The notes under the pieces: generated by a model | Database searches by the model: none | What the model was told of the DNA's origin: nothing | What the model saw: only the letters and a program-made list of their open reading frames with translations | Shown here: positions 1,168 through 3,338 of the stretch, piece after piece | Layout of the letters: every line of letters begins with the position of its first letter | How positions within the stretch are numbered: the first letter of the stretch is position 1 | Position numbers and translations under genes: made by a program | Source: a virus | UHGV virus genome: UHGV-1639282 | Strand: one strand, 5' to 3' | Length of the DNA: 16,370 nucleotides

Positions 1168-1527
1168 TCACCCTTTCTTCATCAACTCGCGTTTAATTTC
1201 ATCGGTACGCATCGTGACATCGGCAGCTGTGATCGCCTCGTTAAGTTTCACGATGTCCTCGATTTCCTGCGGTGTCTTCTCCGCAAGATGGAAAATAGCA
1301 GCACGAATCACATCAGAGCGGGTGAATTTCTCGAAGCGAGGGATGAACTTCATCATCTCCAGCAGTTCGAAGTATTCGTCCTCCAGTGACATTGTGCGGC
1401 TTTTAATTTTCTCTTTGCCACGAGTCGGGCGTCCCTGTGGTCTGACTGGTTGGCGCAAAGGAGTTGTGTTCTTAGCCGGTGCATCAGGCTCTTTGCGCTT
1501 TGCTAGGTCACCCATTTTCATGGACAT
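1168..1527 (-). CDS. Small basic protein (119 aa), possible ParG-like partner of the ParA-like ATPase
   Basis: Start ATG overlaps the upstream gene's stop (TAATG at 1525-1529). The N-terminal ~45 residues are Lys/Arg/Pro-rich and look disordered (KRKEPDAPAKNTTPLRQPVRPQGRPTRGKEKIKSR). The C-terminal part (KFTRSDVIRAAIFHLAEK) looks like a strand-helix unit. The function is inferred from gene context only. Confidence 0.45.
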   Translation of the reverse strand: MSMKMGDLAKRKEPDAPAKNTTPLRQPVRPQGRPTRGKEKIKSRTMSLEDEYFELLEMMKFIPRFEKFTRSDVIRAAIFHLAEKTPQEIEDIVKLNEAITAADVTMRTDEIKRELMKKG

Positions 1528-2195
1528 TATTCTTCTTCCTCCAGACTCAACAGATAATCTACAAATTCTTCAAACTCGGCTTCCGCCTTTTTGTCGCGCT
1601 CGCTACCGGTCATTTCAAAGATAGAACGACCAGACTCTTCCGCATCATCATAGACGTTGCGGTTATATAGATTGACTGGCGCAGACTCGATGCCAAACGT
1701 CTCAACAATCTCTTTAGCCGCCAAAATGCGAGACACTTGTGATGGCAAAGCCGGGCACTGGTTCATGACCGCGCGGACCTTCACTTTATCGTTCACATTA
1801 CGAACATTGTCGATAATAGGATCGATGTCACGCAGAGATTTCAAATCACGACGCTTAGGACGAAGCGGGATAATGATAACGTCGGCCATCAGCATCGCTT
1901 GTCGCTGAATTTCGGAGTCAAAGCCACCAGCATCTACCACTACATACTCAGCTCTACCCTGAAGCGATTTTAGGTGCTTAATGATGTCATCCTGAACGTA
2001 TGCAAAAGGAATCAGCTCAAGGTCTTCGTTCTGTCGACGGTCTTCACACCAGCTTGTTGTCGTGCGCTGAATATCTATATCAGTGATATAAACCTTCTTC
2101 TTCTTTTTGACTTTCAGGCAAACGGCAATTTGCTGGGCAACAGTGGATTTGCCAGGCCCGCCCTTTGTGCCGCCAACCACAAAGATCTTGGTCAT
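1527..2195 (-). CDS. ParA/Soj/MinD-family ATPase with deviant Walker A (222 aa)
   Basis: N-terminus MTKIFVVGGTKGGPGKSTVAQQIA contains the deviant Walker A KGGxGK[ST]. A VVVDAGG motif follows, and the size matches small type-Ib partition ATPases. The protein ends in an acidic tail (LSLEEEE). ATG at 2195-2193 with AAGGGA ~9 nt upstream. Confidence 0.8.
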   Translation of the reverse strand: MTKIFVVGGTKGGPGKSTVAQQIAVCLKVKKKKKVYITDIDIQRTTTSWCEDRRQNEDLELIPFAYVQDDIIKHLKSLQGRAEYVVVDAGGFDSEIQRQAMLMADVIIIPLRPKRRDLKSLRDIDPIIDNVRNVNDKVKVRAVMNQCPALPSQVSRILAAKEIVETFGIESAPVNLYNRNVYDDAEESGRSIFEMTGSERDKKAEAEFEEFVDYLLSLEEEE

Positions 2196-2341
2196 TGGAG
2201 AGTTCCCTTTGCGTATATAATTATCGTCTGAAACAACTTGTTTTCTTATATGTGATATAGCCTAAATGCCTACGGCTGCGGTGTAAAGGTTATTTAGTAG
2301 GTTGTTATTGCCTATTGCTAGTAACTGTTTTCATTTGTCTG

Positions 2342-2370
2342 TTGAAAAAAGTGACAATCATCTCTATATT
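2342..2370 (+). promoter_or_regulatory. Candidate sigma70 promoter TTGAAA-N17-TATATT, directed toward ataR
   Basis: Hexamers at 2342-2347 and 2365-2370 with a 17-bp spacer, each 5/6 match to consensus. The predicted start site falls on the dyad at 2375-2393. It lies ~145 bp upstream of the ataR ATG. Sequence pattern only. Confidence 0.3.
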
Positions 2371-2374
2371 ACGA

Positions 2375-2393
2375 GTACGGTAAATTGCCGTAC
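2375..2393. promoter_or_regulatory. Dyad symmetry GTACGG-N7-CCGTAC, candidate operator
   Basis: Inverted hexamers read directly from the sequence, positioned at the predicted +1 of the candidate promoter in the divergent region between the ParA-like gene and ataR. Confidence 0.3.
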
Positions 2394-2417
2394 ACAATTT
2401 GATGACACATACGCAAT

Positions 2418-2504
2418 GGGCTATAGCCCAGTTAAATAACCTTTGAGTCGAAAACTCAGTTTAAATAGAGAGCAATGATGGCCTTCCTACATCACCGGCC
2501 ATCA
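2418..2504. promoter_or_regulatory. Cluster of dyad symmetries in the ataR leader: GGGCTATAGCCC (2418-2429), TGAGT-N5-ACTCA (2444-2458), TGATGGCC-N13-GGCCATCA (2476-2504)
   Basis: A perfect 12-bp palindrome and two inverted repeats read directly from the sequence. The last one ends at the ataR Shine-Dalgarno (AGGGGG, 2505-2510). Type II antitoxin/TA complexes commonly autoregulate by binding palindromes in their own promoter region. Confidence 0.3.
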
Positions 2505-2514
2505 GGGGGTACAC

Positions 2515-2784
2515 ATGTCCGCACTGAAAAAGCAGCGCATCGATTTGAGATTAACCGATGACGATAAAAGCATCATCGAGGAAGCTGCCGCAATGTCTAA
2601 CCAGAGCATTACCCAGTTCATGGTTAGCAGTGCATCCGAACGTGCCGTGAAGGTGATAGAGCAACACCGTAGACTGGTTCTAAGTGAAGAGTCCTGGAAT
2701 CTGGTTATGGACGCTATAAGCAATCCTCCGGCACCGAACGACAAGCTGAAACGAGCTGCCAATCGTCTGAAAAGCATGGAGTAA
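2515..2784 (+). CDS. ataR: DUF1778-type RHH antitoxin (AtaR/TacA family)
   Basis: 89 aa: MSALKKQRIDLRLTDDDKSIIEEAAAMSNQSITQFMVSSASERAVKVIEQHRRLVLSEESW. It closely resembles AtaR/TacA sequences as I recall them, and it sits 7 nt upstream of a GNAT toxin gene. ATG with AGGGGG SD. Confidence 0.88.
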   Translation: MSALKKQRIDLRLTDDDKSIIEEAAAMSNQSITQFMVSSASERAVKVIEQHRRLVLSEESWNLVMDAISNPPAPNDKLKRAANRLKSME

Positions 2785-2791
2785 TTTACTC

Positions 2792-3313
2792 GTGAGCAAT
2801 ACGACGATCGAGATTTTCTCTGGAGAGAACGATTATGATCTAAACGGTTTTGATTGCGGCGAAGAGTCACTAAACGCATTTTTGACCAACCACTTAAAAA
2901 GACAGCATGAAGGAAAAATTCTTCGCGCTTATGTGCTTTGCACTAAAGAAGAAATACCAAAGGTATTAGGTTATTACACTTTGTCAGGCAGCTGCTTTGA
3001 GAAAGAAACCTTACCTTCAAAGAGTCAGCAAAAGAAAGTGCCTTATCGGAATGTCCCAAGTATCACTTTAGGCAGACTGGCTTTGGACAAATCTCTTCAA
3101 GGTCATGGGCTTGGCTCAATGCTTGTAACACATGCAATGCGCGTTGTGTACAATGCATCTCTTGCTGTAGGCATTCATGGACTTTTCGTTGAGGCGTTAA
3201 ATGACAAAGCCAAGGCGTTTTATAAAAGTTTAGGCTTTATCCAGCTGGTTGGTAACAACGAGCGTTCTTTGTTCTATCCTACAAAATCTATCGAAAAATT
3301 GTTCGAAGAATAA
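2792..3313 (+). CDS. ataT: GNAT-family acetyltransferase toxin (AtaT/TacT family, aminoacyl-tRNA acetylating)
   Basis: 173 aa, GTG start with GGAG upstream. Contains the GNAT core LQGHGLGSMLVTHAMRVVYNASLAVGIHGLFVEALNDKAKAFYKSLGF and the N-terminal DYDLNGFDCGEESLNAFL segment typical of AtaT/TacT. Classic antitoxin-then-toxin order. Confidence 0.88.
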   Translation: MSNTTIEIFSGENDYDLNGFDCGEESLNAFLTNHLKRQHEGKILRAYVLCTKEEIPKVLGYYTLSGSCFEKETLPSKSQQKKVPYRNVPSITLGRLALDKSLQGHGLGSMLVTHAMRVVYNASLAVGIHGLFVEALNDKAKAFYKSLGFIQLVGNNERSLFYPTKSIEKLFEE

Positions 3314-3316
3314 TGT

Positions 3317-3338
3317 GTTCCCCTCATTTGAGGGGAAC
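3317..3338. terminator. GC-rich hairpin (GTTCCCCTCA-TT-TGAGGGGAAC) between convergent ataT and o-spanin stops
   Basis: 10-bp perfect inverted repeat, 4 nt after the ataT stop (3311-3313) and 8 nt before the o-spanin stop (3346-3348). Flanking T-runs are short on both sides, so efficiency is uncertain. Plausibly a bidirectional terminator. Confidence 0.45.

Follow-up and report, generated by a model that had tools for sequence, protein, structure and literature searches.

A predicted self-repressed toxin-antitoxin promoter and a conserved three-hairpin leader beside parA in an SSU5-like phage-plasmid

The 319 bp that separate parA from an ataR-like antitoxin gene are a back-to-back control region of two unrelated parts, first backbone and then a toxin-antitoxin (TA) module. 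Our main reading, to which we assign a probability of about 0.6, is that the TA part consists of a self-repressed promoter and operator followed by a conserved three-hairpin leader, most likely one that stabilises the mRNA or insulates it. The promoter and operator belong to a type already known in close relatives. The leader with its three hairpins is apparently previously undescribed; a search of the literature for structured leaders in type II TA operons, of the GNAT-RHH kind or any other, returned nothing relevant.

The interval lies in the window, by which we mean the whole stretch of 16,370 nucleotides analysed (UHGV virus genome UHGV-1639282). It is bounded by the parA start codon, which on the reverse strand ends at 2195, and by the ATG of the ataR-like gene at 2515. 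A first-pass annotation had listed in it a promoter, four dyad symmetries and two pairs of direct repeats, and direct reading of the sequence located every one of these elements where it had been placed. Perfect dyads are in excess here. With arms of at least 5 bp and spacers of at most 13 bp we counted 17, against 5.4 ± 2.9 in 1000 dinucleotide shuffles (p = 0.003), and with arms of at least 6 bp there were 7, against 1.4 ± 1.5 (p = 0.008).

Genomic setting

We identify the window as an SSU5-like phage-plasmid of E. coli, since the 2.3 kb around the interval match hundreds of Enterobacterales plasmids of ~110 kb, typed as non-mobilizable, and also phages Cyrano, CMS-2020a and SSU5. The genes on either side of the interval are the following.

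1168-1527, minus strand: small partner gene, product of 119 aa without a Pfam match
1527-2195, minus strand: parA, 222 aa, a small Walker-type ParA (open reading frame; Pfam AAA_31, MipZ, CbiA, ParA)
2515-2784, plus strand: RHH antitoxin gene (ataR-like), DUF1778/TacA family, 89 aa (Pfam TacA1, 3.5e-26)
2792-3313, plus strand: GNAT acetyltransferase toxin gene, 173 aa, GTG start (Pfam Acetyltransf_1, _7, _10)

The parA gene is transcribed away from the TA operon, and its product shares 92% identity with SSU5 ParA across 218 aligned residues. The toxin gene is labelled KacT or AtaT in related records and is followed in the local order by minus-strand lysis genes. Two unrelated genes occupy the corresponding slot of SSU5, from parA to the lysis cassette, and the similarity of SSU5 to the window ends near 2292-2302. 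The TA module is cargo within this variable slot. Every TA-bearing relative keeps its operator 175-180 bp from the parA ATG, and the sequence beyond the operator is replaced wholesale.

Promoter and operator

Between the backbone and the antitoxin gene we recognise three elements that bear on transcription.

2342-2370, plus strand: putative sigma-70 promoter of the TA operon, TTGAAA-N17-TATATT (TTGAAA 2342-2347, TATATT 2365-2370)
2375-2393, no strand: operator GTACGG-taaattg-CCGTAC (GTACGG 2375-2380, CCGTAC 2388-2393), matching the KacAT crystal DNA
2377-2514, plus strand: predicted 5' leader of the ataR-like mRNA, ~138 nt, from an inferred transcription start site (TSS) and beginning with the hairpin of the transcribed operator

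The promoter matches 10 of 12 consensus positions and was the sole plus-strand sigma-70-like site that a promoter scan returned in 2100-2620, where one such match is not significant alone. The proposal of a promoter at this place is borne out by a register shared throughout the family. Comparison was made with 197 related loci that have a recognisable start and operator, drawn from genomes sampled at one per species, from viral contigs and metagenomes, and from E. coli records. Among 118 distinct related sequences the -35 element is TTGAAA or TTGAAT, the spacer is 17 bp, and the -10 element, TATAnT in the family, ends 4 nt before GTACGG. A perfect GTACGG-N7-CCGTAC was present in 70 of the 71 loci of a first set; when the full set was scored, 197 of 200 loci had it. 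With the operator always 4 nt after TATAnT, the putative promoter, the operator and their register are family-wide. No second promoter within the leader was returned by the plus-strand scan of 2100-2620, and TTGACC, conserved at the foot of the last hairpin in relatives, has no -10 partner.

Within the 16-kb window GTACGG-N7-CCGTAC occurs once, without mismatches. KacA4KacT2 was crystallised on the DNA AAATGTACGGTTATTAACCGTACATGA, a palindrome that spans the TSS of kacAT, and roles in DNA contact have been described for antitoxin residues R8, D10 and R12 (PMC6698736). Against AtaR, KacA and a plasmid homologue the window's antitoxin shows 75-79% identity, and it keeps these three β-strand residues, which are invariant alongside all three proteins; among known structures it matches KacA (5zgn_A, 2.5e-41) and AtaR (6ajm_C, 5.2e-40). 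To judge from the sequence, then, GTACGG-N7-CCGTAC is the operator for the RHH antitoxin/toxin complex, as already known in close relatives. The suggestion that the first dyad serves autorepression thus holds up well, resting on the match to the crystallised KacAT operator and on near-invariance across the family.

The TSS is predicted at ~2377, 7 nt past the -10 element and within the left half-site of the operator, from the position of the -10 element and the reported overlap of palindrome and TSS in kacAT. Within a T-A2-A2-T heterohexamer the antitoxin would contact the operator through its RHH N-termini, and since the operator would overlie the start of transcription, the complex would repress its own operon. 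Self-repression by KacAT runs by conditional cooperativity. A start inside the operator would also give a leader of ~138 nt, so that the structured leader of ~140 nt postulated in the first-pass annotation is likely, provided that the TSS sits in the operator as it does for kacAT.

A leader class with three covarying hairpins

Past the operator the predicted leader holds three dyads, which we refer to as RNA hairpins A, B and C, and the Shine-Dalgarno sequence (SD).

2417-2430, plus strand: predicted RNA hairpin A, U GGGC uaua GCCC A (single-sequence folds; covariance alignment)
2444-2458, plus strand: predicted RNA hairpin B, UGAGU cgaaa ACUCA (single-sequence folds; covariance alignment)
2476-2504, plus strand: predicted RNA hairpin C, UGAUGGCC, 13-nt loop, GGCCAUCA (covariance alignment; RNAalifold)
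2505-2509, plus strand: SD GGGGG, GGAGG in the sister allele (sequence; unpaired in predicted folds)

In the DNA, hairpin A corresponds to the palindrome GGGCTATAGCCC at 2418-2429, hairpin B to TGAGT at 2444-2448 with ACTCA at 2454-2458, and hairpin C to inverted-repeat arms TGATGGCC at 2476-2483 and GGCCATCA at 2497-2504. The 3' arm of hairpin C abuts the SD, which follows it directly, and the ATG lies five bases further on.

The distance from operator to ATG is 121 nt in the window and ranges from 14 to 331 nt across the family, in which we distinguished 129 distinct leaders. The three-hairpin class comprises 24 distinct sequences with ~120 nt after the operator, from six named genera, namely Enterobacter (E. 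soli), Huaxiibacter, Lelliottia, Salmonella (chromosome), Morganella and Mangrovibacter, and from viral and metagenome contigs. The description of such a leader as unusual for a TA operon therefore needs qualification, because length varies so widely in the family and several genera have leaders of the three-hairpin type. The class is also present in E. coli, in two phage-plasmid alleles that are ~81% identical and in an IncF-type plasmid. The window's own leader was found in 152 of 5426 complete E. coli genomes, always on plasmids and with no chromosomal copy. Elsewhere members of the class stand in chromosomal loci without a phage-plasmid backbone, for example on large Salmonella and Morganella contigs. 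A covariance model of the class, built from seven distant members, scored the window at 76.5 bits (E ~1e-14).

Several lines of evidence concern pairing in these hairpins. In the alignment of all 24 distinct sequences, which was fitted to the structure by a covariance model and so favours pairing, 87.2% of cells pair, and sliding the partners lowers this to 20-45%; covariation scores 0.430, a value that slid partners (at most 0.126) do not approach and that none of 500 shuffles reached. The covariance-model alignment was used for covariation because an alignment by MAFFT only left the stems one column out of register. Hairpin C is paired in 97% of cells, with compensatory changes in six of its nine pairs, and RNAalifold recovers it independently; hairpins A and B are absent from the RNAalifold consensus. 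For hairpin A, 82% of cells are paired and both sides have changed in 4/5 pairs. The corresponding values for hairpin B are 75% and 3/5, and this is weaker evidence given that the register of the hairpin varies between subgroups. For most members of the class, single-sequence folds contain all three hairpins. The two E. coli alleles have the three downstream dyads in common and vary in the flanks, and the only two arm substitutions, GCCC to GCCU (hairpin A of the closest allele) and GGCC to GGUC, yield G·U pairs.

The strand and nature of the structure are indicated by these wobble pairs. A G·U or U·G pair is more frequent than any other at two positions of hairpin C (12 and 11 of the 24 sequences). 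Read from the other strand, these pairs would become C·A mismatches, so that the structure is that of plus-strand RNA. The three downstream dyads are predicted RNA hairpins of a covarying leader type, and not DNA operators, because abundant G·U pairs work only in plus-strand RNA. Two single-stranded features accompany them, a loop motif in hairpin C, CUUCCUnCAUCAC, that is conserved while the stem varies, and a conserved ACUUAACGAG-like linker. The transcribed operator is in addition predicted to fold into a 5'-terminal stem. As a whole the leader is not unusually stable (folding z = -1.46).

Hairpins that abut the SD recur in leader classes unrelated in sequence. We compared 88 leaders with a length of 45 nt or more, and in 81% the terminal hairpin lay at most 3 nt from the SD called by our script, a figure to be read with the fact that the script mis-set the SD in some classes; a hairpin abutting the true SD was visible by eye in the classes checked. 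Closely related phage-plasmids carry tandem arrays or AT-rich sequence in place of the leader, so that much of it may be dispensable.

Other identities for the leader were considered. The frame upstream of the ATG is shifted by a 1-nt indel between alleles, which argues that the leader is non-coding. An upstream open reading frame or an N-terminally extended antitoxin was rejected on account of this indel and because distant leaders lack codon-like conservation; the 101-aa antitoxin annotated in phage Cyrano starts 36 nt upstream, and that start is out of frame in the window allele. An intrinsic terminator or attenuator was likewise rejected, as no U tract follows the hairpins and no plus-strand terminator-like site was found in 2100-2620. 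Rfam 15 gave no match up to E 5 in 2100-2900 on either strand, and ARAGORN found no tRNA-like or tmRNA-like element.

The SD itself appears to be free. The idea that an RNA structure occludes the ribosome-binding site (RBS) did not survive secondary-structure prediction, in which hairpins A, B and C were seen and the SD was unpaired in minimum-free-energy (MFE) and centroid folds, with an accessibility as in shuffled leaders (0.367 for the window-type leader vs 0.417 shuffled, z = -0.8). The mean z of SD accessibility in the family was +0.21, and in 41 non-redundant leaders the unpaired probability from -15 to +5 was 0.487 vs 0.469 with shuffled upstream sequence. Since accessibility is no better than with shuffled sequence, the idea of insulation gains no thermodynamic support.

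The parA side of the interval

The first part of the interval belongs to the backbone.

2196 to ~2302, no strand: backbone block upstream of parA, kept in SSU5-like phage-plasmids with or without the TA module
2231-2243, no strand: palindrome AAACAAcTTGTTT, lying between parA and its putative promoter (dyad scan)
2259-2287, minus strand: putative parA promoter TTTACA-N17-TAGGCT (-35 at 2287-2282, -10 at 2264-2259)
2285-2296 (AAAGGTTATTTA) and 2433-2444 (TAAATAACCTTT), no strand: 12-bp perfect long-range inverted repeat

The block is conserved in 22 distinct phage-plasmid sequences, and conservation falls after ~2302. Within it, 2229-2292 show 100% identity to phage SSU5, compared with 86% DNA identity for the parA region overall. 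TTTACA-N17-TAGGCT is the probable parA promoter; it matches at 8 of 12 positions, which is under the threshold of the promoter scan, was read by eye, and falls inside the most conserved block. The palindrome AAACAAcTTGTTT is unchanged in SSU5 and the sister phage-plasmids compared, and is a candidate operator for the partition proteins.

Direct repeats had also been noted on this side. Their coordinates are correct, with AGGTTATT at 2287-2294, AGGTTGTT at 2299-2306, TATTGCC at 2306-2312 and TATTGCT at 2313-2319; they do not make a convincing array. The TATTGCC/TATTGCT repeat is not kept even in the closest allele and is probably due to chance, and the AGGTT repeat is conserved only in part.

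An inverted repeat as long as the 12 bp at 2285-2296 and 2433-2444 was reached in 6 of 1000 shuffles. In its perfect form it is confined to the window allele, and relatives match at 7-9 of the 12 positions. An invertible promoter switch between the two arms was rejected, since the inverted arrangement was found in no complete E. coli genome; two seemingly full-length matches to a synthetic inverted arrangement align collinear with the window.

Possible functions of the leader

We favor a role of the leader in protecting the mRNA, because a 5'-terminal stem together with a hairpin flush with the RBS is the architecture of the ompA leader. The ompA leader, of ~130 nt, has two protective elements, a 5'-terminal stem-loop and a hairpin just upstream of the RBS, and Arnold, Yu and Belasco reportedly described in 1998 that this E. 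coli 5' UTR stabilises its mRNA. Hairpin C ends at the SD and, in the predicted folds, leaves it free, and by analogy the leader would act on the mRNA. The 5'-terminal operator stem and the RBS-flush hairpin would protect the ataR-ataT message from 5'-end-dependent decay and from decay by RNase E, and the same elements would shield the initiation region from variable upstream sequence. As the specific function of the leader, protection of the mRNA should be regarded with some caution, and we would give it perhaps one chance in three.

The first-pass annotation had suggested layered control with a second regulator. That dyads A, B and C are DNA operators for such a regulator, for example the partner of ParA or a phage repressor, and so add a layer of transcriptional control to the TA operon, now appears very improbable. 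The significant excess of dyads in the interval, the adjoining partition genes and the retention of all three dyads between the two E. coli alleles amid varying flanks would all agree with it. However, the sequences of the arms are wholly changed across homologues with complementarity retained, the common G·U and U·G pairs would be mismatches in a DNA palindrome, and no half-site is common to the three dyads. Moreover, the dyads lie 40-130 bp downstream of the start site, and the leader is found in the Salmonella and Morganella chromosomal loci that lack a phage-plasmid backbone. It is also distinctly unlikely that the leader is a translational riboregulator, in which the loop sequence CUUCCU (2483-2488) would pair with the SD when hairpin C opens, or the RBS would be occluded in some other way, as a post-transcriptional switch of the antitoxin. 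RNAalifold picks the CUUCCU:SD pairing on a sequence-only alignment, it is possible in 91% of cells, and the constancy of CUUCCUnCAUCAC above a variable stem could be read in the same sense. Yet the pairing shows no covariation, shuffles score alike and slid registers reach 82%, for which reason we rejected anti-SD pairing by the loop and attribute its score to the composition of pyrimidines facing purines. Hairpin C is, moreover, far more stable, the SD stays unpaired in the folds described above, and the RBS is as accessible as in shuffled leaders. A pseudoknot keeping both helices was rejected on geometric reasoning, as only 0-1 nt would be available to bridge an 8-bp stem, which would be sterically impossible; pairing of the loop with a purine tract upstream of hairpin C was rejected as well, being absent in the window and in leaders L016 and L022.

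The leader past the operator could also be a functionless recombination spacer in a variable slot, where only promoter, operator and SD matter. The wide range of operator-to-ATG distances in the family, the short distance of 26-30 nt that suffices in the characterised ataRT and kacAT loci, the quite different leaders of sister phage-plasmids and the modest folding z-score all speak for such a spacer. We nevertheless regard it as unlikely, given that three helices are maintained by covariation across genera, that the dyads are conserved amid variable flanks between alleles only 81% identical, and that a hairpin abutting the SD recurs in leader classes of unrelated sequence. Similarly doubtful is a more far-reaching reading, in which the leader with its CUUCCUnCAUCAC loop and ACUUAACGAG-like linker is an undescribed cis-regulatory RNA of GNAT-RHH TA operons that forms a post-transcriptional layer. 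Such an RNA might, for example, have the TA complex, the toxin or a tRNA-related molecule as its ligand, or might switch between hairpin C and the anti-SD pairing, and translation of the antitoxin would then respond to toxin activity.

Regulation of type II TA systems is normally attributed wholly to transcriptional autorepression and proteolysis. With regard to the former, our results indicate that the recognition code of KacA and AtaR, GTACGG-N7-CCGTAC in a fixed register past the -10 element, is essentially invariant across Enterobacterales, which is useful for annotation and not new. The modest novelty lies in the leader, insofar as a subset of a well-studied TA family keeps helices by compensatory change and almost all long leaders set a hairpin against the SD. 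If this hairpin architecture controls the life-time of the mRNA or translation of the antitoxin, it would be a cheap and testable extra layer that sets the antitoxin:toxin ratio on phage-plasmids. The region past the operator is, in addition, a hot spot of leader replacement in SSU5-like elements.

Comparison with known systems

On the backbone side the closest parallel is with type Ib partition systems, which have an operator and centromere repeats upstream, as in parH of TP228 parFGH. The window shares with them a small ParA that lacks an N-terminal DNA-binding domain, a small partner gene after it, and a conserved non-coding block with a palindrome directly upstream of parA. It differs in that there is no repeat array, two imperfect AGGTT copies and one 13-bp palindrome being all that is present, and in that the partner protein has no Pfam match.

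On the TA side, the chromosomal ataRT locus of E. coli O157:H7, between livJ and panM, has the operator TGTACGG-TGACATA-CCGTACA in the same promoter register, and its antitoxin is 75% identical to that of the window. Its distance from operator to ATG is 26 nt, however, with no leader hairpins, and its coding DNA is only ~64% identical to the window's. The kacAT locus of Klebsiella pneumoniae (5ZGN) has GTACGG/CCGTAC half-sites identical to those of the window with a 7-bp AT-rich spacer, an operator placed directly after the -10 element at the expected TSS, and an RHH antitoxin gene followed by a GNAT toxin gene. The window's antitoxin is 79% identical to KacA or to the pPEC1020 plasmid homologue, a value that is ambiguous between the two, and R8, D10 and R12 are kept. 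Whereas kacAT has ~30 nt from operator to ATG (leader L038), the window has 121 nt with three hairpins, and its module stands beside parA on a phage-plasmid. The leader itself is best compared with the ompA-type 5' UTR. There is no sequence relationship between the two, and the resemblance is purely architectural, consisting of a 5'-terminal stem-loop, an RBS-adjacent hairpin and a similar leader length.

Results and Discussion

Variable-number tandem arrays separate the operator from the Shine-Dalgarno (SD)-proximal hairpin in the toxin-antitoxin (TA) leader of sister SSU5-like phage-plasmids, the ParA proteins of which share 84-91% identity with that of the window. A further leader type was found among the collected TA loci (L numbers).

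L007 (about 1060-1170) and L111 (872-1147), also L102-L113, L139, L143, L145, L146: tandem-array leaders
L114, L117-L122, L108, L142, L144 (about 990-1200): third leader type, 210-226 nt

The arrays are built either of (GAAAACT)n or of a 14-nt unit, AAACTGAAACCTAG, at 19.6 copies, and leader length varies between 121 and 331 nt; in the window, GAAAACT occurs just once in the leader, within hairpin B. The arrays could represent repeats prone to slippage or else protein-binding iterons beside parA. The third leader type has a very high AT content, with repeats of short TATATC-like motifs, and is again closed by a GC-rich hairpin immediately 5' of GGGAG or AGGAG. Some relatives, L113 and L115, carry two operator copies about 30 nt 5' of the leader: a perfect GTACGG-N7-CCGTAC is followed after ~30 nt by a degenerate copy, GTACAAAAGCAGGCCGTAC, and then by a three-hairpin leader of the window type.

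In the record of phage Cyrano (the sister allele, L001 4312-4617) the antitoxin is 101 aa long, its annotated start lying 36 nt 5' of the position equivalent to 2515 in the window, inside hairpin C. In the window allele this upstream start is shifted into another reading frame by a 1-nt indel, so it was probably mis-called.

Two further features flank the TA region.

1168-1527, minus strand: gene for a 119-aa product, downstream of parA
3317-3338: 9-bp GC-rich hairpin, GTTCCCCTC-attt-GAGGGGAAC

The 119-aa product had no Pfam match, and the Cyrano record gives its gene the label 'RelE/ParE putative toxin'. Its position downstream of parA makes a centromere-binding partner of ParA more likely than a RelE/ParE toxin. 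The hairpin lies 4 nt past the toxin stop codon, where the TA cassette ends on the right, and faces the lysis genes on the minus strand. It probably acts as a terminator in one or both directions.

A long-range repeat encloses hairpin A together with the promoter and operator of the TA operon.

2285-2296 and 2433-2444: perfect 12-bp inverted repeat, arms AAAGGTTATTTA / TAAATAACCTTT

This length was attained in just 6 of 1000 shuffles. The perfect repeat is confined to the window's allele (13 loci), and the inverted arrangement between the arms was found in none of 254 E. coli plasmids searched. Relatives match at only 7-9 of the 12 positions, from which it follows that both arms changed together, in a pattern reminiscent of template-switch (quasi-palindrome) mutation.
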